DNA of 64,000 nucleotides, from NCBI GenBank assembly GCA_964417635.1, contig CAYQIY010000011.1, positions 33,741 through 97,740 of the forward strand, read 5' to 3'. Under the pieces are notes generated by a model. It did no database searches, was not told where the DNA came from, and saw nothing but the letters and a program-made list of their open reading frames with translations. Below, in pieces: positions 3,592-64,000 of this stretch; position 1 is the first letter of the stretch; every line of letters begins with the position of its first letter. The translations under genes were made by a program, and so were the position numbers. Origin of the DNA: an uncultured Pseudomonadota bacterium. Lineage in GTDB: Bacteria; Bacillota; Sulfobacillia; JAUYEF01.

Positions 3592-4818
3592 TTGCCAAGA
3601 CGCGACTTTGTGGTAGGTCTTGACATAGGCACAAGCAAAGTGTCTGTAGTCGCAGCCGAGATAGCCTCCGAGTCACAGGTGAATGTAATCGGAGTTGGTA
3701 CGAGCCCTTCCAACGGCATGAGGAAGGGCGTCGTCGTAGACATAGATGGGATAGTGCGTTCGATTGGTACGGCGCTTGAACAGGCTGAGCGAATGGCCGG
3801 GATCGACATCAAGTCGGCTTACATAGGCATAACGGGTGCTCACATATCTTCTTTGAACAACCGAGGCGTTGTGGCTGTTGGCAGAGAGGACAAAGAGATC
3901 ACCCAAGAAGACGTAGACCGTGTCATGGATGCCGCGCGTGTAATCAACATACCTTCGGATAGGGAGATCATCCACGTGTTGCCGCGTGAGTTTGTGGTCG
4001 ACGGCTACGATGGAGTCAGAGATCCGGTGGGCATGATGGGAGTCCGGCTTGAGGTCGAGGCGCAGATTGTGACTGGCGCTGTCACTTCAATGCAGAACCT
4101 GCTCCGGGCAGTGTACAAGTCTGGGCTTGAAGTAGATGACGTGGTGCTTGCACCGCTTGCTTCAGGCGAAGCGGTGCTACATCAAGCTGAGCGTGAGCTC
4201 GGTGTTGAAGTGGTGGATGTCGGCGGAGGCACTACCGATATTGCCATATTCGAAAACGGCAGCCTGTGGCATGCTGCGGTACTTCCGCTCGGAGGTGACC
4301 ATATCACCAACGACATAGCCGTAGGTCTCAGAACTCCGGTTTTCCAAGCAGAGAAGATTAAGAAGGACTATGGAGTTGCACGGGTGAGCCTCATTGAGGA
4401 TGACTCGAGTTTCCAGATGCCGCTTGTTGGGGGAACGAAAGAGAAAAGTGTAGCACGCGCCACACTTGCAGGCATTATTGAACCGCGTGTGCAAGAAATC
4501 CTGCTGATGCTTGACAGAGAGGTGAAGAAGGCAGGATACGGCAGCGTTCTTCCGGGAGGCGTGGTATTTACCGGTGGCACTTCTTTGCTTCCGGGCCTCG
4601 TTGATTTTGCGCAAGAGGTGTTGGACATGCCGGTCAGGCTCGGTGTTCCGAGCGGAATCGGCGGACTCAGAGATGTTGTGGCCAGTCCTGCCTATGCCAC
4701 GGCGGTAGGGCTTGTGTTGTTTGCAGCAAGCGAAAGAGACAAGTCTCTGCCTCGCCAGAAAGAAGGCGGAGGCGGTGTATTTAACAGGATCAAGAGTTGG
4801 TTTCGAGAATTCTTCTAG
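3592..4818 (+). CDS. ftsA: Cell division protein FtsA
   Basis: 408 aa; DIGTSKV actin-like N-terminus; TTG start preceded by GGAGGTGA; immediately upstream of ftsZ. Confidence 0.95.
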   Translation: MPRRDFVVGLDIGTSKVSVVAAEIASESQVNVIGVGTSPSNGMRKGVVVDIDGIVRSIGTALEQAERMAGIDIKSAYIGITGAHISSLNNRGVVAVGREDKEITQEDVDRVMDAARVINIPSDREIIHVLPREFVVDGYDGVRDPVGMMGVRLEVEAQIVTGAVTSMQNLLRAVYKSGLEVDDVVLAPLASGEAVLHQAERELGVEVVDVGGGTTDIAIFENGSLWHAAVLPLGGDHITNDIAVGLRTPVFQAEKIKKDYGVARVSLIEDDSSFQMPLVGGTKEKSVARATLAGIIEPRVQEILLMLDREVKKAGYGSVLPGGVVFTGGTSLLPGLVDFAQEVLDMPVRLGVPSGIGGLRDVVASPAYATAVGLVLFAASERDKSLPRQKEGGGGVFNRIKSWFREFF

Positions 4819-4844
4819 AACACTGACCCGTGAGGGGGAGCGCT

Positions 4845-5906
4845 ATGCTGGATTTTGATCTTGATACTGAACGCTTTGCGAACCTCAAAGTGGTAGGAGT
4901 AGGCGGGGGAGGTTCAAACGCCGTGAACCGGATGATAACTTCTGGTTTGAAGGGCGTTGACTTCATCGCGGTGAACACTGACGCTCAAGCCCTTGCGCTG
5001 TCGAACGCGCTGCGCAAGATACAAATAGGCCAGAACATTACGAGGGGCCTTGGTGCGGGTGCAAATCCTGAAATAGGATTCCAGGCCGCCGAGGAAAGCC
5101 GAGAGGAGATTATGGAAGCGCTCAAGGGCGCTGATATGGTGTTCATAACTGCCGGTATGGGTGGAGGCACCGGCACAGGCGGAGCGCCGGTTATCGCGGA
5201 GGTATCCAAAGAGATCGGCGCACTCACCGTAGGCGTGGTGACGAAGCCGTTCTCGTTCGAAGGCAAGCGACGCCAGCAGGTTGCCGAAAAAGGCATTCAG
5301 GAGCTTCGTCAGAAGGTTGACACACTGATCACCATACCGAACGATCGGCTGCTGCAGGTGGTGGACAAGAAGACGTCCATAGTGGAAGCGTTCAAGTACG
5401 CCGACGATGTGCTGCGGCAGGGAGTGCAGGGCATATCCGATCTCATAGCCGTACCCGGCCTGATAAACCTCGACTTCGCCGATGTCAAGACCATCATGGT
5501 TGATACCGGCTCGGCTCTCATGGGGATAGGCTCGGCGTGTGGCGAGACCAGAGCGGTAGAAGCTGCTCGTGCCGCGATATCTAGTCCTCTTCTCGAAACC
5601 TCGATTGAAGGAGCGAGGGGCATTCTGCTCAACATTACGGGAGGCTCCGACTTAGGTCTGTTCGAGGTGAACGAGGCGGCAGAGATAGTGGCCGAGGTTG
5701 CAGATCAGGACGCAAACTTCATCTTTGGTGCTGTGATCGATGAGTCGATGGGAGACGAGATCCGAGTAACGGTTATAGCGACGGCGTTTGACGGCAGACT
5801 GCCCAAGACAGAGAAGCGACCCGAGGAGGCAAAGGTGCCTGAGGTTGAGATAAAGCAGTATGGGGGAGATGAACTGGACATACCTGCCTTCTTGCGCAAG
5901 AAATAG
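4845..5906 (+). CDS. ftsZ: Cell division protein FtsZ
   Basis: ORF 4830..5906; start at Met6 after GAGGGGGAG RBS; GGGGSNAV and [12 protein letters not shown] tubulin signature. Confidence 0.97.
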
Positions 5907-5921
5907 AGACCGAACTAAGAA

Positions 5922-5952
5922 CCCCGCCGAACCCGGCGGGGTTTTGTCGTTT
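5922..5952 (+). terminator. Rho-independent terminator downstream of ftsZ
   Basis: CCCCGCCG-aacc-CGGCGGGG hairpin followed by TTTTGTCGTTT. Confidence 0.65.
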
Positions 5953-5967
5953 CAAAGCCAACAGTGC

Positions 5968-6001
5968 GTGACAGTATGCGCCATAGCGCTTCGCTTATAA
6001 T
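5968..6001 (+). promoter_or_regulatory. Candidate spoIIG-type promoter (-35-like GTGACA, ~22 nt spacer, TATAAT)
   Basis: GTGACA ... 22 nt ... TATAAT about 85 nt upstream of spoIIGA start; unusual spacing resembles the Spo0A-dependent spoIIG promoter of B. subtilis; a TGTCGTT (0A-box-like) lies ~20 nt further upstream. Confidence 0.3.
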
Positions 6002-6087
6002 GTAGACACGTTCTGAGACGCTATCTGAACGAATACTCTTGCTATAAGAGCAGGCATTACGTCTGTTAGAGCCTAGGGGTGGCCCCG

Positions 6088-6972
6088 ATGGTTCAGTATG
6101 TTTACGTGGACATTTTGTTCTTGGGCAACTGGCTGATGAACCTGCTGTTGCTCTGGGCTACAGCCAAGTTCGTGGGCATCAGCACGCGCCGATCAAGAAT
6201 GTGCCTGGCAGCGGCCATTGGAGCCGGGTACGCCGTTACAGTGTGTATTTGGCCGGAGATCCCACTTGGTCACGCAGTAGTCAAGATAATTGTGCTGTTA
6301 GCAATGATCTACGCTTGCTTCGGGCGGCTCAGACCTGCAGCCGGAGCGCGAATAGTGGCCTACTTTCTTACCTTCTGTTTCTCGGTTGCCGGTGCAGCCA
6401 CAGCGCTGGTGCATGCGGCTAGCGCCGGAGGCGCGAATCCGGAATGGATTCCGCTACTTGGGGGGGTTGGGTTGAGCGCCCTCGGAATACGGAGCGTGTG
6501 CGCTCGTGCAGCCAGACATTACAACCTCCCGGCAACGTTGCATACAGAGGTTACGGTGGATGGGCAAACCGTCTGCTTTCATTCGTTTGTAGACACAGGC
6601 AACCATCTGCTTGACCCGGTATCCGGCATGCCTGTGCTGGTATGCGAGAAGCATGCCGTAATGCCTCTTATGCCACCTCCTGTGAGCGCAGTTTTCAAAC
6701 GAGGCGCCGACGGTGTATGTAGCGTCGTCTGCAAAGAGAGCATCGGGTCATGGACGACGAGGCTGCGTGTGATACCTTATGCCAGCCTTGGCACTCCAAA
6801 CGGCATGTTGTTAGGGTTCAAACCCGACGAGGTTAGGCTGGGCCGAGAAGCAGCAGGCATGGTCAGCCCCAACGTGATCATCGGTGTATGCGAGAGTAAA
6901 CTGAGCCAAGACGGTGCGTACAGCGCGCTCGTGGGCCCTGCATTAACCGCACTGCTTAGAGAAGCGAGGTGA
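6088..6972 (+). CDS. spoIIGA: Sporulation sigma-E factor-processing peptidase SpoIIGA
   Basis: ORF 6079..6972; start at Met4 after AGGGGTGG; multi-TM N-terminal half, FVDTGN aspartic-protease motif; directly upstream of sigE. Confidence 0.9.
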
Positions 6973-7706
6973 CTGGCTTGACCAGTTTTGAGAGGCTGTG
7001 CTGGGCGGCGAGGTTACTGGTCGTGAAGATACTGCACTGTACAGGTTTGGCGCGCAATTCGCTGGATTACGTGGGTTCCAGCGAAGCGCTTCCTCCACCG
7101 CTGAGCTCGGATGAGGAACTGTTCTTACTGGCGCGGCTGGAGCGAGGCGAGAACACCGTCAGAAGCGTGCTGATCGAAAGAAATTTGAGGCTTGTGGTGT
7201 ACATAGCCAGGAAGTTTGAAAACACCGGTGTGGGTATAGAAGACCTGGTTTCCATAGGCACCATAGGGCTTATAAAGGCGGTAGGCACGTTTGACCCGTC
7301 CAAACGCATCAAACTTGCGACATATGCTTCGAAATGCATAGAGAACGAGATATTGATGTACCTTCGGAGGAACAACAAGACGAGGTCAGAGGTTTCGTTT
7401 GACGAACCACTTAACGTGGATTGGGACGGCAACGAACTGCTGCTGTCTGATGTATTGGGGACTGACAGCAACACCGTTAGCCGCGAACTGGAAGAAGAGG
7501 TTGACAGGACACTGCTGCGAAAGGCAATGGCCAACCTGAGTGGTCGCGAGAGATGCATAGTCGAACTGAGATTTGGGCTTTCAGGCGGTGTGGAACGCAC
7601 ACAAAAAGAAGTGGCCGACTATCTTGGGATTTCGCAGTCATACATATCGAGGCTGGAGAAAAAGATAATGAAACGCTTGAGGCGAGAGATGAAGCGCATG
7701 GAATGA
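6969..7706 (+). CDS. sigE: RNA polymerase sporulation sigma factor SigE (pro-sigma-E)
   Basis: N-terminal pro-sequence followed by [12 protein letters not shown] and near-identity to B. subtilis SigE through regions 2-4 ([19 protein letters not shown]..., [12 protein letters not shown]). Confidence 0.95.
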
Positions 7707-7726
7707 GACAATGCTGCTTATCAATG

Positions 7727-7754
7727 GCCCGGCGCTACCGGGCTTTCTTCATTT
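7727..7754 (+). terminator. Putative terminator/attenuator between sigE and sigG
   Basis: GCCCGG-cgcta-CCGGGC hairpin followed by TTTCTTCATTT. Confidence 0.45.
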
Positions 7755-7869
7755 ACCCCTCTGTGCCGCGTATCTACCAGTAATTGGTACCACCTCGAAT
7801 TAATCCGCACTTTCGGGAGCATAATTATCTTCGCAGGTTAGTCCATTTGTTTCCCGGGGGTCAGCTGGT

Positions 7870-8637
7870 GTGAACAAAGTCGAGATATGTGGAGTAAATA
7901 CCGCGAAGCTGCCTGTGCTATCCAACGCCAAGATGCGCGAACTGTTTGTCCAAATGCAAAATGGCGACGAATCCGCCAGGGACAGACTGGTGGGCGGTAA
8001 CCTAAGGCTTGTGTTAAGCGTTATACAGCGATTTAACAACAGGGGCGAGTATGTAGACGATCTATTCCAGGTCGGATGTATCGGGCTGATGAAAGCAATA
8101 GACAACTTCGACCTGTCACAAAATGTGAAGTTCTCAACTTACGCAGTGCCCATGATAATCGGGGAAATACGCCGCTATCTTAGAGACAACAATCCGATAC
8201 GTGTGTCGAGGTCATTGCGAGACGTAGCCTACAGAGCGCTACAAGTTCGCGATGCGCTTGTGACCCGGCATTCGCGAGAGCCCTCTATAAACGAGATCGC
8301 TCAAGAACTCGCGATGCCACGAGAAGAGGTTGTGTATGCACTCGACGCGATCCAAGAGCCCATATCGCTGTTTGAGCCGGTCTACCATGACGGCGGTGAC
8401 CCCATCTACGTGATGGATCAGATAAGCGATGAGAAAAATCAAGACCACAACTGGCTTGAAGGAATCTCAATTAGAGAGGCGCTACGCAAGCTGTCTCCGC
8501 GCGAAAAACGCATCCTGACACTGAGATTCTTTGACGGCAAAACGCAGATGGAAGTTGCCCAGGAAATCGGCATATCTCAAGCTCAGGTATCGAGGCTTGA
8601 GAAGGCCGCGTTGACACACATGCGTAAGCATATGTAA
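7870..8637 (+). CDS. sigG: RNA polymerase sporulation sigma factor SigG
   Basis: MNKVEICGV..., GNLRLVLSVIQRFNNRGEYVDDLFQVGCIGLMK, ISQAQVSRLEK; near-identical blocks to B. subtilis SigG. Confidence 0.95.
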   Translation: MNKVEICGVNTAKLPVLSNAKMRELFVQMQNGDESARDRLVGGNLRLVLSVIQRFNNRGEYVDDLFQVGCIGLMKAIDNFDLSQNVKFSTYAVPMIIGEIRRYLRDNNPIRVSRSLRDVAYRALQVRDALVTRHSREPSINEIAQELAMPREEVVYALDAIQEPISLFEPVYHDGGDPIYVMDQISDEKNQDHNWLEGISIREALRKLSPREKRILTLRFFDGKTQMEVAQEIGISQAQVSRLEKAALTHMRKHM

Positions 8638-8650
8638 GGGGTTGAAAAGC

Positions 8651-9283
8651 ATGAACTCAAGACGGCAGGCAATACTGCTGCTCGGGCTGGCCGTGGTGGT
8701 GGCGACGTGTATGGGTCTCATGCGCCCGGCTTTGGGCGCCGATTCTCACCCGCGCAACGATCTGTTGAGGCTGCACATTGTGGCGAACAGTGATTCTGAG
8801 CATGATCAACAGGTGAAACTGATGGTCAGAGATGCCATACTGAAGCACACGGCCGAAGCGTTGACCGGAGTTCGCACTGTGACAGAAGCTTTCGAGTATC
8901 TTACTGCCGAAAAAGACAACGTACGGAAAGTAGTCGAAAGCCAACTTGCTGAATGCGGTGTTTACCAGGAGTTTAGCATGCAGATCGGATGGATGAGGTT
9001 CCCTACTAGGGCATACAAAGACAAGATAGTCCCGGCAGGTGTTTACAGGGCTATACGAGTGGTGCTAGGAGATGGCGCAGGAGCCAACTGGTGGTGCGTG
9101 GTGTTTCCACCGCTCTGCCTGGGTAATACTGCAACAAAAAGCAACTCAAAGAGTGACTCGCGGCCGGAGGTAATCGATGACGAGTGCACGGAAAGACTCG
9201 AGGTAAGGCCCAAACTCGCAGTGTTGGAATGGGCCAGAGCCAAAAAAGACACGATTACGGCCATAGTGAGCCGAAAACACTAG
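8651..9283 (+). CDS. spoIIR: Stage II sporulation protein R
   Basis: ORF 8642..9283; start at Met4 after AAGGGG; signal peptide, LRLHIVANSDSEHDQQ and GANWWCVVFPPLC motifs characteristic of SpoIIR. Confidence 0.85.
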   Translation: MNSRRQAILLLGLAVVVATCMGLMRPALGADSHPRNDLLRLHIVANSDSEHDQQVKLMVRDAILKHTAEALTGVRTVTEAFEYLTAEKDNVRKVVESQLAECGVYQEFSMQIGWMRFPTRAYKDKIVPAGVYRAIRVVLGDGAGANWWCVVFPPLCLGNTATKSNSKSDSRPEVIDDECTERLEVRPKLAVLEWARAKKDTITAIVSRKH

Positions 9284-56777: not shown

Positions 56778-58687
56778 CGGGTGCGAAATTGGGAAACCGG
56801 TATGAACTGCTCGAACGAATCGGCGGAGGCGGGATGTCTCTTGTGTATAAGGCTCGAGATATGCTGCTAGATCGCACCGTTGCTGTCAAAGTGTTGCGTG
56901 CGGCGTACGCGAGCGATGAAGATGTCATAAGGAGGCTGCGCAGAGAGGCCCAGGCAGCTGCCAGCCTTTCACATCCGAACATAGTCGGCATGTACGACGT
57001 GGGCCAGGAAGGCGATGCGCATTACCTGGTGATGGAGTACATTGCCGGTCAGACTCTTAAGCAAAAGATCCAGCGTCTAGGTTCGCTTCCGGTGCAAGAC
57101 GCGCTTGTTATATCCGAGCAGATATGCGAAGCGCTGGAACATGCGCACGCTCACGGCGTTATACACAGGGATATCAAGCCGCATAACATAATGCTCACGC
57201 AGGGAGGCAAAGTGAAAGTTGCCGACTTTGGAATTGCGCGAGCTGCGGCGTCGTCTACGCTGACGCATTCCGGAACCATCATAGGCTCTGTTCACTATTT
57301 TTCGCCTGAGCAGGCGAGAGGTGCGTTTGCTGGCGAAAAGTCGGATATCTACTCGCTCGGCGTAGTGATGTACGAGATGCTTACGGGCAAAGTGCCCTTT
57401 GAAGGCGACAGTCCGATTACGATAGCTCTCAAACACGTTCAGGAAGAAGTGGTCGCGCCTCGCAGGTTAAAACCGGACATTCCGGCGGAAGTCGAGCGCG
57501 TTGTTATGACTGCACTTGCAAAGGAGCAGTCCAGGAGGTATCAGTCTGCGGCCGAGATGCTTGCCGATATACGCAAAGTGTCTGGGAAGAGCGATCTGAC
57601 AGAGGTTGATTCAGCGCTTAAGAATGAATATAAGGAAGGATCGAACAGGCCTGTGCGCAATTCTAAATCTGTGAGAGCCGCAAGACAGGAGAAAAAGCCC
57701 AGAACAGACAGTGCGGCGAGAAACGATAGACGAGATGCCAGGTCAGGCAGGAGGAAGAGACGATTCCCGTGGTTCATTCTGCTTGTGTTGCTTATGGCGG
57801 CTCTTGCCTGGGGAGGTTTGTCACTTCTGAGGGGTTGGCTCGAAGTTCCGACCGTAGCAGTGCCAGATGTGACAGGCAAGAGCCTCAGCGAGGCAAACAG
57901 AATGCTGCAGGAAGCAGGGCTTGTGGGCGCAGTAGTAGCAGAGAAGTACGACGAAAGCGTTGCGTCGAGTCACATCATAAGCCAACAACCCGAGCCTGGA
58001 GAGATGGTGCGCGCTGGAAGAACGATTAACCTTACCGTAAGCATGGGACAGGAGTTCACCGTTGTGCCCGAACTGGCAGATCTATCTGTGCGCGAAGCGA
58101 TGTTGCAGCTTAGCGCAGAAGGCCTAGAGCTCGGTAGCGTCAGAACCAGGAACCATCCGACGGTACCGGCGGACACGATCATATCGCAGAACCCGAGAGC
58201 GGGTACTCGTGTCGCAAAAGGTACGCAGGTTGACGTCGAAGTAAGCGCGGGCGCAGAGACGCTGACGGTCGTAGTACCGAACCTGGTGGGGGATACGCAA
58301 GGCGGTGCAGTCGGCAAACTTGAATCACTCAAGCTTGAGGCCGGCGCGATTTCACGTCGCGTCAGTAATATACCTGAAGGAATTGTGCTTGATCAAGATC
58401 CGACTCCTGGAACAGAACTCAAAGAGGGCTCAACTGTAGACCTCGTGGTCTCTGCAGGCCCTACACAGCAGACAAGACGCAGCAGCCTATCGTTCTTGGT
58501 GCCGTCGCACCAGCCGTCGTCATGGATACGCATAACTGTTACCGATTCTAGCGGCACCAACAAGGTGTACGAACAGCGACACAGTGCAGGAACCACTCTT
58601 GAACTGGAAATAGAGTGGATGGGCACAGAGGCAAAAGCGATGATCTACGTAGATAATGTGCCATACCGTGAGGAGGTATTGCGTTAG
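56774..58687 (+). CDS. prkC: Ser/Thr protein kinase PrkC (kinase + TM + PASTA repeats)
   Basis: 637 aa; GGGGMSLVYKA, HRDIKPHN, DFG-like ADFGIA kinase motifs; TM helix; three PASTA-like repeats. Confidence 0.95.
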   Translation: MTGAKLGNRYELLERIGGGGMSLVYKARDMLLDRTVAVKVLRAAYASDEDVIRRLRREAQAAASLSHPNIVGMYDVGQEGDAHYLVMEYIAGQTLKQKIQRLGSLPVQDALVISEQICEALEHAHAHGVIHRDIKPHNIMLTQGGKVKVADFGIARAAASSTLTHSGTIIGSVHYFSPEQARGAFAGEKSDIYSLGVVMYEMLTGKVPFEGDSPITIALKHVQEEVVAPRRLKPDIPAEVERVVMTALAKEQSRRYQSAAEMLADIRKVSGKSDLTEVDSALKNEYKEGSNRPVRNSKSVRAARQEKKPRTDSAARNDRRDARSGRRKRRFPWFILLVLLMAALAWGGLSLLRGWLEVPTVAVPDVTGKSLSEANRMLQEAGLVGAVVAEKYDESVASSHIISQQPEPGEMVRAGRTINLTVSMGQEFTVVPELADLSVREAMLQLSAEGLELGSVRTRNHPTVPADTIISQNPRAGTRVAKGTQVDVEVSAGAETLTVVVPNLVGDTQGGAVGKLESLKLEAGAISRRVSNIPEGIVLDQDPTPGTELKEGSTVDLVVSAGPTQQTRRSSLSFLVPSHQPSSWIRITVTDSSGTNKVYEQRHSAGTTLELEIEWMGTEAKAMIYVDNVPYREEVLR

Positions 58688-58693
58688 CGAACT

Positions 58694-59584
58694 TTGGATA
58701 AAACGGAGGAAATCTGCAGCGGAATAGTGGTTAAGGCAATGAGCAGCTTCTACCACGTACTGGTGGGTGACAGCCGACTCGTGGCCAGGCCAAGAGGGCG
58801 CTTCAAGATACGCTCGCAAGATGTGCTTGCGGGTGACAGAGTCACGGTGTGCATCGCCGAGGACGGAATGGGCTACATTGACAGCGTTGAGGAGAGGAGA
58901 AATTGCTTGGTCAGGCCGCCTGTTGCGAACATCGACCAGGCTTGTGTCGTTTTTACTTACCGCGATCCCCCGCTGGTACCTGAACTCATAGATCGTATAC
59001 TTGTTCACACCGGTGTGGTGGGAGTGTCACCGTTACTGGTGCTAAACAAGGCTGATCTGATGAGCGCAGAAGAAGTTGATACTGTGCTTGAGATGTACTC
59101 TCATTTGAGCTGTCCGTTGTTTGTCACAAGTGCAGTTGTGGGAACAGGCGTAGACGTACTGCGTGCACAACTTGCAGCAAAGACGTCGGTAATGGTCGGA
59201 CAGAGTGGGGTCGGCAAGTCCAGATTGCTGAATGCTCTCGTGCCGGGCGCAGGAAGAAGCACGCAAGAGGTAAGTAGAAAGGTGCGCAGAGGAAGACACA
59301 CGACACGCCACGTAGAACTTATCAGTATCAGTGATGGCTTCATAGCAGATACTCCAGGATTCAGCTTGCTCGAGCCCGTGAAGGTAAGTCCTTGGGAACT
59401 TTCGGCGTTCTTTGAGGAGATACACGCCGTCGAACACAGTTGCCGTTTCACGGATTGTCTACATAGAGACGAACCCGGTTGTGCAGTTAAGGATGCGGTC
59501 CGAGACGGTAGGATTCCTGTGTCTCGATATGAGAACTACCTTACGATGTTGAGCGAGGCAGAGACTGAAAGCAGGAGGTACTGA
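58694..59584 (+). CDS. rsgA: Ribosome small-subunit-dependent GTPase A (RsgA/CpgA)
   Basis: 296 aa; OB fold, GTPase motifs (VLNKADL, GQSGVGKS), C-terminal zinc finger (CRFTDCLHRDEPGC). Confidence 0.9.
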   Translation: MDKTEEICSGIVVKAMSSFYHVLVGDSRLVARPRGRFKIRSQDVLAGDRVTVCIAEDGMGYIDSVEERRNCLVRPPVANIDQACVVFTYRDPPLVPELIDRILVHTGVVGVSPLLVLNKADLMSAEEVDTVLEMYSHLSCPLFVTSAVVGTGVDVLRAQLAAKTSVMVGQSGVGKSRLLNALVPGAGRSTQEVSRKVRRGRHTTRHVELISISDGFIADTPGFSLLEPVKVSPWELSAFFEEIHAVEHSCRFTDCLHRDEPGCAVKDAVRDGRIPVSRYENYLTMLSEAETESRRY

Positions 59585-59585
59585 G

Positions 59586-60251
59586 ATGGCTAGGATATCC
59601 GCTTCAATACTGTCGGCCGATCTCGGAAGGCTGGCCGAGGAAGTCGCCAGAGTGGAATCTGCGGGTGTCGATCTGCTGCACTTAGATATCATGGACGGTC
59701 ACTTCGTGCCGAATCTGAGTTTCGGGCCCGCGTTGATGGGTTCTATACGACGTGTATCGTCTCTGCCAATGCACGCGCACCTGATGGTTAATGATCCCAC
59801 CTGGATGATAGATGAATGTGTGGCTCATGGGGCGCAATTTGTAACAGTGCACGCTGAGGCATGTGCACACCTGCACCGTACTCTATCAAGAATAAGAGAG
59901 AGTGGAATAAGTCCTGGAGTGGCTCTGAATCCCGCTACGCCTCTTACTAACATAGAATGGGTGTTGACCCTCGTTGATAACGTCACGCTAATGAGTGTGA
60001 ACCCAGGTTTTGGCGGTCAGAAGTTCATATCGTCGGTTCTGGCCAAAATCAGTGCGCTATGTGAGTTGGCGGCGAGGCTCAATCCTGCTCTGGATATAAT
60101 AGTCGACGGAGGAATCAACGATCTGACGGCCAGGGCAGTGGTTGAAGCAGGTGCGAGTACACTTGTCGTAGGGTCTTATCTGTTTGGGCAGAACACGTGC
60201 TCAAGGGTTCAGACTATAAGGCAGGCTATCCGGCATGAAGTAAGTTGTTAG
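59586..60251 (+). CDS. rpe: Ribulose-phosphate 3-epimerase
   Basis: 221 aa; LHLDIMDGHFVPN and MSVNPGFGGQKF motifs. Confidence 0.95.
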   Translation: MARISASILSADLGRLAEEVARVESAGVDLLHLDIMDGHFVPNLSFGPALMGSIRRVSSLPMHAHLMVNDPTWMIDECVAHGAQFVTVHAEACAHLHRTLSRIRESGISPGVALNPATPLTNIEWVLTLVDNVTLMSVNPGFGGQKFISSVLAKISALCELAARLNPALDIIVDGGINDLTARAVVEAGASTLVVGSYLFGQNTCSRVQTIRQAIRHEVSC

Positions 60252-60268
60252 CTACATGTTGAGTTGTG

Positions 60269-60297
60269 TTTACTGAGCGAGTATGCAGTGCTATAAT
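60269..60297 (+). promoter_or_regulatory. Candidate sigma-A promoter for the FMN riboswitch-ribU unit
   Basis: TTTACT - 17 nt - TGcTATAAT (extended -10) about 20-30 nt upstream of the riboswitch. Confidence 0.4.
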
Positions 60298-60317
60298 GAG
60301 TGATGCAAAAACACATA

Positions 60318-60515
60318 TGTGCAAACCTTCGGGGCTGGGTGAGAGGGCGTGCCCTCAATTCCCTACCGGCGGTGGGGCCAGGTCTGGCCGAGCCCGCGAC
60401 CCCCGTTAAGAACGGGGCTGATCCGGCGAAGAACCGGAGCCGACAGTATAGTCTGGATGGGAGAAGGTGTGTTTTGGTGTAGTTCCCCGGGGTTTCGCCC
60501 GGGTTTTTTGCTGCC
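60318..60515 (+). ncRNA. FMN riboswitch (RFN element) with terminator-type expression platform
   Basis: CTTCGGGGCTGGGTGAGAG..AATTCCCTACCGGCGGT..GCCCGCGACCC..GATCCGG..CCGGAGCCGACAGTATAGTCTGGATGGGAGAAGG matches conserved RFN blocks; followed by CCCGGGgtttcgCCCGGG hairpin + TTTTTT immediately upstream of ribU RBS. Confidence 0.8.
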
Positions 60516-60541
60516 CGGGACGAAAGAGGAGGAGTCAATTG

Positions 60542-61093
60542 GTGAAAGACAAGAGTGTTCAGATGGTGGTTCGTATCGGGTTTCTATCGGCTGTCGGGTT
60601 GGTGCTCACGTTCTTTGAGTTTCCCATTCTTCCGAGTGCTCCGTTTCTCAAGTACGACGCTTCAGAAGTGCCTGCGTTGATCGCCGCTTTCGGTATGGGG
60701 CCCTTGGCCGGTTTTCTGACGGTATTTCTTAAGAGCTTGCTTTTCCATTTCTCGGGCAAGAACATGACGGGCATAGTCGGTACGAGCGCAATGATAGTGG
60801 CGGGAACGGCGCTTGTGGTGCCGGCGGGAATAGTCTACGCAAGAATGAAGAACATTCGAGGCGCGGTGTTGGGTCTTCTCTCCGGCATAGTGGGAATAAC
60901 GGTTATAATGTTCTTTGCCAATCTGTATGTACTGCTCCCGCTTTGGGGAATACCGGAAGAGATTCGGGCGTCTCTCGTGAGAAGTGCGGTTGTGCCGTTT
61001 AACATTATCAAGGGGTTTACCAGCTCAATAGTCACCTTCCTGCTTTACAAGAGGGTCTCCTCGATAGTAAGGCTAGACAAGCCTATTGTCTAA
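60542..61093 (+). CDS. ribU: Riboflavin ECF-transporter substrate-specific (S) component RibU
   Basis: ORF 60467..61093; GTG start after AAAGAGGAGGAG; multi-TM protein aligning with B. subtilis RibU/YpaA (FEFPILP..., DASEVPALIAAFGMGPLAG); FMN riboswitch upstream. Confidence 0.8.
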   Translation: MKDKSVQMVVRIGFLSAVGLVLTFFEFPILPSAPFLKYDASEVPALIAAFGMGPLAGFLTVFLKSLLFHFSGKNMTGIVGTSAMIVAGTALVVPAGIVYARMKNIRGAVLGLLSGIVGITVIMFFANLYVLLPLWGIPEEIRASLVRSAVVPFNIIKGFTSSIVTFLLYKRVSSIVRLDKPIV

Positions 61094-61106
61094 GCAGCGG
61101 TTAGAA

Positions 61107-61142
61107 GCGGGCGCCACAGATATCAGGGTGCCCGTCTTTTTT
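61107..61142 (+). terminator. Terminator downstream of ribU
   Basis: GGGCGCC-loop-GGTGCCC hairpin followed by GTCTTTTTT. Confidence 0.5.
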
Positions 61143-61201
61143 CACGCCTTGGGGCGTCTCCCGAATACTATAAGATAGTGAGTGCTGGAGGCGGAGAGGC
61201 A

Positions 61202-61366
61202 GTGTTTAAGAGATCGAAGAACCGCACAATGCGATGTGCCGTAGGTCTCTTGCTCATGGCCGTGGGCGTGGTGCTGGTTTGGGCGGCGCCAGCTTGGCTG
61301 TTCAGATTCGTGTGTGGCGCTGGCCTAATTGGGCTGGGCTGGTCCATTCTAAGAAGGGATGGATGA
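61202..61366 (+). CDS. Hypothetical small membrane protein (~54 aa)
   Basis: ORF 61178..61366 trimmed to GTG after GGAGGCGGAGAGG; basic N-terminus (KRSKNR) then two hydrophobic segments; same frame and 3 nt upstream of spoVM. Confidence 0.4.
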   Translation: MFKRSKNRTMRCAVGLLLMAVGVVLVWAAPAWLFRFVCGAGLIGLGWSILRRDG

Positions 61367-61369
61367 TCG

Positions 61370-61465
61370 ATGTCGGTGAGGATCAAGGTGGTCAAAGTGC
61401 CGAGGCCTGTCGGAGCAGTGCTGAGGGCAATGCTTGGCATATTCGGCAGAAACTCCCGCTCTTAA
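61370..61465 (+). CDS. spoVM: Stage V sporulation protein M (SpoVM), ~31 aa micro-protein
   Basis: Not in ORF track (too short); translation MSVRIKVVKVPRPVGAVLRAMLGIFGRNSRS aligns with B. subtilis SpoVM MKFYTIKLPKFLGGIVRAMLGSFRKD (recalled); conserved position next to rpmB. Confidence 0.6.
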   Translation: MSVRIKVVKVPRPVGAVLRAMLGIFGRNSRS

Positions 61466-61472
61466 AGGGCGG

Positions 61473-61496
61473 AAACAGGGCACGAGTGCCCTGTTT
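61473..61496. terminator. Perfect inverted-repeat hairpin between convergent spoVM and rpmB
   Basis: AAACAGGGCAC-ga-GTGCCCTGTTT; flanked by A-run upstream and T-run downstream, could act bidirectionally. Confidence 0.4.
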
Positions 61497-61514
61497 CTAA
61501 GTATGGGACAGGCT

Positions 61515-61552
61515 TAGCAAAACACGAAGACTCTTCGAGCGTACGAAGAGTC
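61515..61552 (-). terminator. Terminator downstream of rpmB (minus strand)
   Basis: GACTCTTCG-agcgta-CGAAGAGTC hairpin; on the minus strand followed by TTCGTGTTTTGC. Confidence 0.45.
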
Positions 61553-61567
61553 CCGGGTACAGAAGTG

Positions 61568-61759
61568 TTATACTGCTCTTTCAACCTTTCCGGAACGCAA
61601 GCAGCTGGTGCACACATACATCCGAGCAGCACGGCCTTTAACAAGAACACGAACCTTTTGGATGTTGGGTGCCCAGATACGCTTTGTCTTAATGTTTGAA
61701 TGGCTTACGTGATGTCCGAAACCCACTTTCTTTCCGCATACCTCGCATATCTTTGCCAA
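61568..61759 (-). CDS. rpmB: 50S ribosomal protein L28
   Basis: ORF 61568..61918 (-) trimmed to TTG at Leu54 after AGGAGGTG; product MAKICEVCGKKVGFGHHVSHSNIKTKRIWAPNIQKVRVLVKGRAARMYVCTSCLRSGKVERAV. Confidence 0.9.
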   Translation of the reverse strand: MAKICEVCGKKVGFGHHVSHSNIKTKRIWAPNIQKVRVLVKGRAARMYVCTSCLRSGKVERAV

Positions 61760-61787
61760 AGGTCGCACCTCCTGCATAACGGGATTC

Positions 61788-61816
61788 ATTCTAACACAGA
61801 GCTTTTGGTATTGCAA
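61788..61816 (-). promoter_or_regulatory. Candidate sigma-A promoter for rpmB
   Basis: On the minus strand: TTGCAA - 17 nt - TAGAAT about 30 nt upstream of the rpmB RBS. Confidence 0.45.
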
Positions 61817-61961
61817 GGTGCACTGCCTAGTACGATAATGTAGACTTGTAGTGGAGCACGCGCGTTTGATGTTGACGGCACCGGTTGATGCTAAGAAGGA
61901 AAATCGGTGTGTGCGCAAAATACGTAAATACTTAGGGCCAAGTCAATGGAGGGTTTCTCAG

Positions 61962-62321
61962 ATGGACCGCGAGATTACCAACGAACTCGGACGTCTCAGC
62001 GTGTCTGAAGATGTCATCGCCACCATTGCAGGCGTGGCCGCAACCGAGTGCTACGGCATAGTCGGCATGTCGTCTCGAAGGATGGCGGACGGGATCGCGG
62101 AACTCTTGGGCCGGGAGAACTTGAGCCGCGGAGTAGAAGTTGCCGTTGAAGGGGATAAGGCGACGATCACCTTGAACGTGATAGTCGGATACGGTACCAG
62201 GATATCCGAAGTGGCAAGAAACGTAGTGGATAAGGTCAAGTACACAGTAGAGAACGCCACCGATCTGAAGGTGGCCAAAGTCAAAGTAAATGTTCAGGGC
62301 GTGAAGGTTGGTCCTAGATAG
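61962..62321 (+). CDS. Asp23/Gls24 family envelope stress protein (YloU-like)
   Basis: ORF 61851..62321; start at Met38 after GGAGGG; ..VIATIAGVAATECYGIVGM.. Asp23 signature. Confidence 0.85.
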   Translation: MDREITNELGRLSVSEDVIATIAGVAATECYGIVGMSSRRMADGIAELLGRENLSRGVEVAVEGDKATITLNVIVGYGTRISEVARNVVDKVKYTVENATDLKVAKVKVNVQGVKVGPR

Positions 62322-62333
62322 GGGAGGCCCGTA

Positions 62334-63974
62334 TTGAGCGGGGAGTGCATAACGGGAAATTTGTTTCGCAGAATGATCGCCGGTGCAACAGAGGTCTTAA
62401 AACAGAACAAGGCTACCGTGGACGCGCTAAACGTGTTTCCGGTGCCCGATGGGGACACCGGGACGAACATGTCGCTTACCATGCTGTCTGCTACTGCCGA
62501 GGCGCAGAAGTCAAGGTCTGAGAATCTGTCTGCGGTAGCCGAGCAAGTCGCACTCGGTTCACTGATGGGAGCTCGAGGCAACTCGGGCGTCATACTGAGC
62601 CAGCTTTTCCGAGGAATAGCGAAAGGGCTCTCGGGCCACGAAAAAGCATCAGCAGAGGTGCTTGCTGAGGCTTTTGAACAAGGCGTCGAGACAGCCTACA
62701 AGGCGGTTATGAAGCCGGTCGAGGGGACTATCCTAACGGTGGCGCGTGAAGCCTCTAGAGCTGCTAGGACTGCCGAGCAAATGGGGAAGGACGTCTACGC
62801 GGTGTGGGAGGCGGCATGTAGAGAGGCAGAGGCTGCACTCGCAAGGACGCCGGAACAGCTGCCAGTGCTTAAGCAGGCCAAAGTGGTTGATGCGGGTGGA
62901 AAAGGGTTGGTGTATATCCTAAAGGGCGCTCTTGACGTGTTACGCGACCAGAGCCCGGTAAAGAAGACCAATGTGGTGTTACGGCCCGTGGCGGAAGAGG
63001 CGACGATCACCGATGACATGGGAGAGATTGCTTACCCGTACGACACCCAACTTCTGGTTAAGGCTACTTCGGTAGACGTTGATAGTCTTCGCGAGCAGCT
63101 TGAGCCGCTGGGCGACTCGCTTCTTGTAGTGGGTTCTGAAGAAGTGGCCAGAGTGCACATCCACACCGAGCGACCGGACGAGGTCTTGCGCATCTGTCTT
63201 GCCCATGGATTTGTGTCACGTGTTACGGTGGACAACATGAGAGAGCAGTACCTAGAGATGAAAGAGGGCGCTTCGACAAGTCACGAGCAGCAGCCATCTC
63301 GAGATGACGCCGAAGAAAAGGAAGTTGGAGTCGTGGCCGTAGTGTCGGGACAAGGGCTCATTGAAGTGGTCAAGAGCTTGGGCGCCGACATGATAATAGA
63401 TGGTGGTCAGACGATGAATCCCAGCACTGAGGATGTTGTGACCGCTGTGAACTCGGTGAAGGCAAAGAGAGTCATATTCCTCCCGAACAACGGCAACATA
63501 TTTCTTGCGGCAAAACAGGCAAAGAGGATATGCGATAAGCGAATGTACGTAGTGCCCACAAGGACAATACCTCAGGGAATCTCTGCTCTGTTGGCCTTGC
63601 ATCTCGATGCTAACATGGAAACGAATCTCAAGCGGATGGCGAAGGCGGTCAAGCAGGTGAAGACGGGCGAGATTACGTTTGCGGTTAGAAAGAGCCAGTA
63701 CAATGGGTTTGCGATATCTGAAGGAGACGTACTTGGGCTCATCGACGGCGAGATAGCGTTGACCGGCAGTGATGCCTCATCGGTGTTGAATGATCTGCTG
63801 GATAAGATGGTTGATGAAGACGATGAGGTAATTACCGTGTTTTACGGCAACGGACTCGATGAAGAAAGCGTCTGGAATGCCACTTCTGATCTCTCTTCAC
63901 GCTTCCCCAACTGCGAGATAGAAATAAGAAACGGCGGCCAGCCACTTTACTATTACATTGTGTCCGTTGAGTGA
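62334..63974 (+). CDS. yloV: DAK2-domain fusion protein YloV
   Basis: 546 aa; N-terminal DhaL-like domain (LNVFPVPDGDTGTNM) and C-terminal YloV-type domain; follows asp23 as in B. subtilis. Confidence 0.9.
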   Translation: MSGECITGNLFRRMIAGATEVLKQNKATVDALNVFPVPDGDTGTNMSLTMLSATAEAQKSRSENLSAVAEQVALGSLMGARGNSGVILSQLFRGIAKGLSGHEKASAEVLAEAFEQGVETAYKAVMKPVEGTILTVAREASRAARTAEQMGKDVYAVWEAACREAEAALARTPEQLPVLKQAKVVDAGGKGLVYILKGALDVLRDQSPVKKTNVVLRPVAEEATITDDMGEIAYPYDTQLLVKATSVDVDSLREQLEPLGDSLLVVGSEEVARVHIHTERPDEVLRICLAHGFVSRVTVDNMREQYLEMKEGASTSHEQQPSRDDAEEKEVGVVAVVSGQGLIEVVKSLGADMIIDGGQTMNPSTEDVVTAVNSVKAKRVIFLPNNGNIFLAAKQAKRICDKRMYVVPTRTIPQGISALLALHLDANMETNLKRMAKAVKQVKTGEITFAVRKSQYNGFAISEGDVLGLIDGEIALTGSDASSVLNDLLDKMVDEDDEVITVFYGNGLDEESVWNATSDLSSRFPNCEIEIRNGGQPLYYYIVSVE

Positions 63975-64000
63975 TGGGTATGCGCAATGCGAGAGATACC

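Follow-up and report, generated by a model that had tools for sequence, protein, structure and literature searches.

A 31-codon open reading frame convergent with rpmB (the two stop codons lie 102 nt apart), found in the window (the whole 64,000-nucleotide stretch of DNA analysed here), is a real gene that is conserved, is under purifying selection, and is homologous and syntenic to spoVM. We consider it very probable that this is a genuine coding gene, the spoVM orthologue of an uncultured endospore-forming Bacillota lineage, and that its product acts as proposed below. SpoVM is the very small membrane peptide by which endospore formers anchor their spore coat, and the gene is a new divergent member in a lineage where curated models fail. 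The features of the window that bear on this identification are collected in Table 1.

Table 1 Features of the window, with positions counted from its first nucleotide
Feature	Position	Strand	Details
SpoIIGA	6079..6972	+	172 bits against an NCBIfam cut-off of 209.6
SigE	6969..7706	+	404 bits, above the NCBIfam cut-off
SigG	7870..8637	+	503 bits, above the NCBIfam cut-off
SpoIIR	8642..9283	+	148.9 bits against an NCBIfam cut-off of 151.9
rsgA	58694..59584		
rpe	59586..60251		
FMN riboswitch	60321..60472	+	Rfam RF00050, 92.6 bits against a gathering threshold of 66.2, E = 5e-21
ECF transporter S component (ribU-like)	60563..61093	+	Pfam ECF_trnsprt, 86.4 bits
Intrinsic terminator of the ribU unit	61103..61142	+	G+C-rich hairpin, then six T
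Mother-cell-type promoter motif	61144..61172	+	-35 AC (61144-61145), 18-nt spacer, -10 AATACTATA (61164-61172)
Two-helix membrane micro-protein, 54 aa	61202..61366	+	MFKRSKNRTMRCAVGLLLMAVGVVLVWAAPAWLFRFVCGAGLIGLGWSILRRDG; GTG start, GGAGG at 61187-61191; longest ORF from 61178
spoVM orthologue (very probable)	61370..61465	+	ATG, 31 codons and TAA; translation MSVRIKVVKVPRPVGAVLRAMLGIFGRNSRS
Terminator-like 12-bp hairpin	61471..61498	+	5 nt past the spoVM stop; weak U-tract UUUCU, partly in the stem
Terminator-like hairpin of rpmB	61527..61554	-	consensus scan; 11-pair stem, then T-rich tail
rpmB (L28)	61568..61759	-	TTG start; Pfam Ribosomal_L28 83 bits; TIGR00009 78.3 bits against 48.3
Asp23-family gene	61959..62321		
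Dak2/FakA-type gene	62334..63974		

The initial annotation had reported a 31-codon frame that was unlisted in the ORF track, and this frame exists at the position given in Table 1 with exactly the translation claimed. It becomes visible once the minimum ORF length is set to 20 amino acids, and its absence from the track is expected because the default minimum of the tool is 60. The accompanying statement that gene callers skip ORFs this small is borne out by L081, a JGI metagenome contig with a gene order identical to that of the window: in this near-identical locus the upstream small gene and rpmB are called and nothing is called at the SpoVM position. A look-up of the exact micro-ORF peptide and its neighbours in a collection of 15 billion proteins returned no identical entry, which fits the point on missed gene calls. 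The frame had been placed between ribU and rpmB. Both flanking genes are as stated, but a 54-residue ORF with two transmembrane (TM) segments also lies between them and had been overlooked. Adjacency to rpmB as in Bacillus is confirmed by the same arrangement in two Bacillaceae loci (L067 and L078), and proximity of spoVM to rpmB is a published, conserved feature (Ribis et al. 2017, PMC5607322).

Conservation was assessed in 80 loci from species-representative genomes, fetched with the neighbouring Asp23 protein. Closest to the window is L001, from an unclassified Bacillota MAG (85% Asp23 identity); other Bacillota MAGs and Symbiobacteriaceae come next. All ORFs of 18-70 codons in these loci and the window were translated (15,110 in total). 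The window peptide and B. subtilis SpoVM then served as queries, and each recovered micro-ORFs convergent with rpmB in about 25 loci. The initial annotation had named absence of the ORF from related genomes as evidence against the call; instead, an ORF was found at this position in about 27 loci, across which length and frame are kept. The syntenic micro-ORFs sit upstream of the Asp23 and Dak2 genes. When an HMM built from them was run against the 15,110 small ORFs, its members scored at least 34 bits, all at the same position, two further positional ORFs scored 14 and 9 bits, and all others scored at most 8 bits.

The start codon could be placed by comparison with the two closest relatives, L001 and L081. 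The codon aligned to the window ATG at 61370 is GTG in both, and their third codon is GTC. Because GTC is unable to initiate, the start in this clade is assigned to the position of 61370, which gives the peptide two more N-terminal residues than most SpoVMs have. An in-frame GTG at 61376, which would yield 29 residues in perfect register with M1 of the B. subtilis protein, was rejected as the primary start on the same grounds. The Shine-Dalgarno spacing is not ideal, with GGATGA 3 nt and GAAGGGA 10 nt before the ATG. The ATG sits 3 nt past the TGA stop of the 54-residue ORF, so that translational coupling with the upstream ORF is possible.

Differences between the window micro-ORF and those of L001 and L081 are concentrated at third codon positions, and pairwise pN/pS values among the three are 0.35, 0.30 and 0.08. 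Judged from these substitution patterns, the micro-ORF is under clear purifying selection among close relatives. Three overlapping ORFs, 61234..61500 on the plus strand and 61168..61440 and 61349..61483 on the minus strand, were set aside; the codon-position pattern backs the SpoVM frame.

The claimed core similarity to B. subtilis SpoVM was upheld by formal alignment against NCBIfam and the PDB and by profile-profile comparison. Two NCBIfam models match the 31-residue peptide and both are SpoVM models. PRK14741 (NF011327) scores 16.6-17.2 bits against a cut-off of 55 (16.6 bits, E = 0.0046, for the 31-mer), and NF033436 (SpoVM_broad) scores 15.5 bits (E = 0.013) against a cut-off of 31. In the 29-residue register the NF033436 score is 19.0 bits (E = 0.001) over profile positions 1-23 of 26. 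Pfam PF08183 (threshold 20.6 bits) gave no match to the peptide, even at E = 10. The window peptide reaches none of these three curated family thresholds. The curated SpoVM cut-offs are operational and were trained mostly on Bacilli and classical Clostridia. Among 177,635 distinct PDB sequences the sole matches were SpoVM itself (2MVH, E = 0.022) and its P9A variant (2MVJ); 9 of the 23 residues aligned with 2MVH are identical, including the P, the R and the block RAMLG..F, and a profile of the clade matches 2MVH with E = 4.8e-4. When 1.84 billion representatives were searched exhaustively with phmmer, no significant match was obtained, a result that is uninformative because a 31-residue query can hardly attain the ~41 bits needed.

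The sequence of B. subtilis SpoVM (MKFYTIKLPKFLGGIVRAMLGSFRKD) appears in Fig. S4 of Galperin et al. 2012, and four of its residues have been mapped functionally: K2, I6 (SpoIVA binding), P9 and I15 (PMC5607322). Pro9 is the only invariant SpoVM residue (Ribis et al. 2017, PMC5607322) and is needed for curvature discrimination (PMC5607322, PMC12004969). In the gap-free register the counterparts of these four residues in the window peptide are R4, V8, P11 and V17. P11 aligns with P9, and by residue type K2, I6 and I15 are conservatively replaced. A second proline, P13, replaces B. subtilis F11, giving 'PRP' instead of 'PKF'; this change is specific to the clade, which also bears short N- and C-terminal extensions. 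The length of 31 residues falls in the span of the syntenic homologues (23-37 amino acids). When the sub-threshold 'PRP' clade (A1) was aligned with curated-type SpoVMs (A2) using hhalign, the probability was 97.7% with E = 1.4e-12 over 24 gap-free columns, and the proline is invariant in both sets. Taken together, the alignments show that the similarity to SpoVM is real but weak by single sequence, and under the curated thresholds.

The syntenic peptides fall into a series. The window and L001 share the pattern MSVRI[KR]V[VI]KVPRPVGA[VL]L[RK]A[MI]LG.F; Symbiobacteriaceae peptides are represented by MRITVIKLPRPLGRMVMAILAIFSGK..., clostridial peptides by MRIYVIKLPKFLGRL... and Bacillaceae peptides by MKFYTIKLPRFLGGMVRAVIGTFKKD. 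Arranged in this order, they form a continuum that grades from the 'PRP' type through the clostridial forms to the SpoVM of Bacillaceae. Five of the syntenic peptides (L006, L035, L058, L033 and L067) clear the NF033436 cut-off with 31.0-59.4 bits, and the whole 'PRP' clade lies under it with 15-25.5 bits. No SpoVM-like ORF was found in 16 control loci with the same rpmB-Asp23 layout, 14 of them with the label of Dormibacterota or of another phylum outside Bacillota, and two from Staphylococcaceae. The taxa named on these 16 labels are not known to form endospores. In the loci that lack spoVM, a regular-expression scan aimed at SpoVM-like ORFs of greater divergence gave only off-position chance matches.

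Two other patterns were seen in the set of loci. In Symbiobacteriaceae-type loci spoVM is near but not adjacent to rpmB because an Hsp33 chaperone gene intervenes. This gene is called between the two in L082 (3459..4343) and L084 (3447..4322), and presumably it also fills the 1.1-1.4 kb that separate spoVM from rpmB in L010-L013, L016, L017 and L020. Separately, six loci (L005, L014, L032, L061, L068 and L072) carry the labels Chloroflexota, Sumerlaeota, Caulobacteraceae, Acidiferrales or Saccharimonadales, and their Asp23 loci most resemble those of Bacillota or Dormibacterota. The one labelled Caulobacteraceae (L032) holds a clostridial-type two-TM micro-protein. The oddly labelled Asp23 contigs may reflect mis-binning in those MAGs.

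A single-sequence AlphaFold2 model places residues 1-11 in a non-helical segment and residues 12-29 in a helix (mean pLDDT 78.5). Hydrophobic residues make up most of the predicted helix, which contains one Arg, and the net charge of the peptide is +7. Amphipathicity, which the initial annotation had listed as a check, is also predicted: the hydrophobic moment of 0.37, at a mean hydrophobicity of 0.55, exceeds 97% of shuffles (0.53 and 0.32, respectively, for B. subtilis SpoVM). The peptide is thereby predicted to have the flexible N-terminus and membrane-embedded helix that characterise SpoVM.

The window also contains the run ftsA, ftsZ, spoIIGA, sigE, sigG and spoIIR (3592..9283, plus strand). 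Because SpoIIGA, SigE, SigG and SpoIIR are present, we conclude that the organism is equipped with the sigma-E activation module known from endospore formers. SpoIIGA and SpoIIR fall just below their cut-offs, so curated sporulation models generally under-score this lineage. Within the 64-kb window, which is part of the genome, spoIVA is absent. The source lineage has its nearest relatives among MAGs close to Symbiobacteriaceae. From 1 to 64000 the GC skew stays positive throughout (0.06-0.17), GC content is 53-56%, and most long ORFs are on the plus strand; the skew and the ORF orientation place the whole window on one leading-strand replichore.

Upstream of the micro-ORF, the FMN riboswitch is the only Rfam match over 58000-64000, and is followed by a terminator-like hairpin and T-run at 60486..60503. 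The ECF S-component gene behind the riboswitch fits a ribU-type transporter. Its listed start, GTG 60467, falls within the riboswitch and therefore the true start is probably ATG 60563 (MVVRIG...), an assignment that also uses the position of the terminator-like element. The region 61090..61150, which holds the intrinsic terminator of the ribU unit, folds with -25.6 kcal/mol (z = -3.7), and none of 200 shuffles was as stable. On the other side of spoVM, the region 61460..61510 folds with -20.7 kcal/mol (z = -3.4), again with 0 of 200 shuffles as stable; the hairpin at 61471..61498 was not called by a simple terminator scan. The placing of the promoter and terminator elements around the two-TM ORF and spoVM suggests that the two form one transcription unit.

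The promoter motif immediately follows the terminator of the ribU unit. The pattern AC-N16-18-[C/A]ATAnnnT is found at the corresponding position of 21 out of 22 related loci and in 2.1% of background 100-nt windows, figures obtained with a pattern that was refined after viewing the same loci, which are phylogenetically related and not independent. In the aligned upstream regions of related loci it lies 34-68 nt before the start codon of the two-TM ORF. The -10 element of the window begins with A instead of C. It looks compatible with both mother-cell sigma factors, and the -35 looks more sigma-K-like (AC) than sigma-E-like (ATA). The check for a sigma-E type promoter proposed in the initial annotation thus had a mixed outcome: a mother-cell-type motif is indeed located upstream, but its -35 is of the sigma-K type. 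In the sequence immediately before spoVM and before the two-TM ORF, neither a canonical sigma-E promoter with an ATA-type -35 nor a sigma-A promoter was convincing. At motif level, a candidate mother-cell promoter upstream of the two-gene unit is well supported. In B. subtilis and C. difficile, spoVM is sigma-E-dependent (PMC517825; PMC5607322).

By homology with known SpoVMs, the peptide would be made in the mother cell during sporulation from the sigma-E/sigma-K-type promoter at 61144..61172, probably as the second cistron behind the two-TM micro-protein. Its hydrophobic helix (residues ~12-29) would enter the outer forespore membrane, and the flexible N-terminus, set off by P11, would give it a preference for the convex forespore surface. 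There it would tether the SpoIVA ATPase, the basement layer of the spore coat, so that coat assembly could start. SpoVM is nearly dispensable in C. difficile, and its essentiality may therefore vary by lineage.

The dispensability in C. difficile also bears on an alternative in which the peptide is a true SpoVM homologue with a different role, either largely dispensable or working mainly with the two-TM micro-protein and not as a SpoIVA anchor. In C. difficile, spoVM mutants lose heat resistance only 3- to 5-fold, and spoVM is co-transcribed with a 50-amino-acid gene of unknown function (PMC5607322). A small membrane-protein gene, with its stop 3 nt before the ATG, also precedes spoVM in the window, the two-TM gene persists in 12 loci with no detectable spoVM, and the window's clade carries an extra proline and terminal extensions. 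Against this, every functionally mapped SpoVM residue is conserved or conservatively replaced and purifying selection is clear; in addition, C. difficile SpoVM is reported still to bind SpoIVA in vitro (PMC5607322). We regard such a change of role as unlikely, and retain a SpoVM that acts on SpoIVA as the preferred reading.

It is still less plausible that the peptide belongs to another class of small hydrophobic proteins (a type I toxin, leader peptide or regulatory micro-protein) that converged on a SpoVM-like composition. Short basic-plus-hydrophobic peptides are common and easily confused, and a charge of +7 with a hydrophobic helix would suit them. The likeness to SpoVM is however positional rather than compositional (gap-free register, invariant Pro, RAMLG..F), the chromosomal position is the orthologous one, and the motif that precedes the unit is a sporulation-type one, without any signature of an antisense RNA or an attenuator. 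The idea of a chance open frame between two terminators, with a coincidental likeness to SpoVM, draws on the 31-codon length, the single-sequence E-values of 0.001-0.02 and the scores below the curated cut-offs. It is effectively refuted, and is the least probable of the alternatives: position, length and frame are kept in about 27 loci whose peptides are 38-69% identical to that of the window and are thus not assembly duplicates, pN/pS is well below 1, the profile-profile comparison is highly significant (E = 1.4e-12), the HMM matches nothing else among the 15,110 small ORFs, and the ORF is missing from control loci with non-spore-former labels.

The micro-protein encoded upstream of spoVM belongs to a family of its own. 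Homologues lie directly upstream of spoVM in about 20 loci, with their stops 3-45 nt before the spoVM start. Family members include L001 3128..3376, L081 3001..3186 and L082 3001..3168, together with about 40 other loci. They have 46-70 amino acids and are annotated, if at all, as hypothetical proteins with no Pfam domain; Pfam and NCBIfam searches of 27 members gave only scattered sub-threshold matches to unrelated membrane families. Four positions (G, P, G, G) are invariant, the family motif is G..L...G......P.W.W....G..L...G, and AlphaFold2 predicts a helical hairpin (H8-28 and H31-53, pLDDT 70). Run against 3,576 ORFs of 35-110 amino acids from all loci and the entire window, the family HMM (A4) found matches at a single chromosomal position only, where the ORFs are on the plus strand and immediately precede either spoVM or the 3' end of rpmB.

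Twelve loci in which no spoVM could be detected still have the two-TM gene at this position. Clostridia-like examples, all with the gene directly convergent with rpmB, are L028 3259..3581, L030 3109..3444, L037 3205..3525, L039 3084..3446, L043 3374..3559, L066 3354..3530, L070 3375..3560 and L079 3243..3449. L028, L030, L037 and L039 carry tandem two-TM pairs, and the AC-N16-18-[C/A]ATAnnnT pattern also occurs upstream in the SpoVM-less loci L066, L079, L070, L043 and L039. Bacillaceae loci do not have the family, and thiN precedes spoVM there. We tentatively suggest, at somewhat short of even probability, that these proteins are a widespread unclassified family of mother-cell-expressed sporulation proteins and, in Bacillota other than Bacilli, the ancestral partner of SpoVM in its operon, lost in Bacilli, retained and sometimes duplicated in SpoVM-less Clostridia, and possibly including CD25622 of C. 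difficile. In that case the protein would help to mark the forespore surface, either alongside SpoVM as its membrane partner or in its place. The family occurs in more lineages than SpoVM and is a candidate for a part of forespore-surface organisation that has been overlooked in Clostridia; as a by-product of the analysis, it could matter more than the SpoVM call.

The identification of SpoVM is not new in kind, since missed spoVM genes and the linkage to rpmB have both been published: spoVM had been missed in 70 genomes, including that of Symbiobacterium thermophilum, and was then re-translated (Galperin et al. 2012). Because NF033436 and PF08183 miss the 'PRP' clade around Symbiobacteriaceae, automated annotation and presence/absence surveys will score spoVM as missing in this lineage and in the rest of that clade. 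This bears on when SpoVM arose and on whether it was originally required for the localisation of SpoIVA. The alignment of the 'PRP' clade can be used for widening both models.

Three known systems are close to the arrangement in the window. In C. difficile, the CD25622-spoVM unit has spoVM in second place behind a gene for a ~50-amino-acid protein, under mother-cell sigma control and close to rpmB (Ribis et al. 2017, PMC5607322). CD25622 and the 54-residue two-TM protein are alike in position and size, and by this analogy the latter may be a counterpart of CD25622. No C. difficile protein was matched in two profile searches with the two-TM family. CD25622 has been described as restricted to Peptostreptococcaceae (PMC5607322), whereas the two-TM family spans many Clostridia-like lineages.

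The SpoVM of S. thermophilum, newly translated at coordinates 1504044-1504121 (Galperin et al. 2012, Fig. S4), had also escaped the original annotation, and is of the 'RLPRPLG...A.....FSG' subtype that is also seen in L016 and its relatives. The window peptide is 38-48% identical to the Symbiobacteriaceae versions and keeps the Bacillus-like RAMLG block, and its gene adjoins rpmB directly, whereas in Symbiobacteriaceae-type loci the Hsp33 gene lies between. B. subtilis SpoVM (BSU15810; 26 amino acids; NMR structure 2MVH, P9A variant 2MVJ) aligns in the same gap-free register and has M, K7, P9, G13, R17, A18, M19, L20, G21 and F23 in common with the window peptide. A non-helical N-terminus followed by a hydrophobic helix, here predicted, is another shared property, as is the position of the gene, which follows rsgA-rpe, faces rpmB in convergent orientation and precedes the Asp23 and Dak2 genes. 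Unlike B. subtilis SpoVM, the window peptide has 31 residues instead of 26, with an extra N-terminal 'MS' and a C-terminal 'GRNSRS', and its gene is preceded by the two-TM gene and not by thiN, with 'AC' as the -35 of the candidate promoter.
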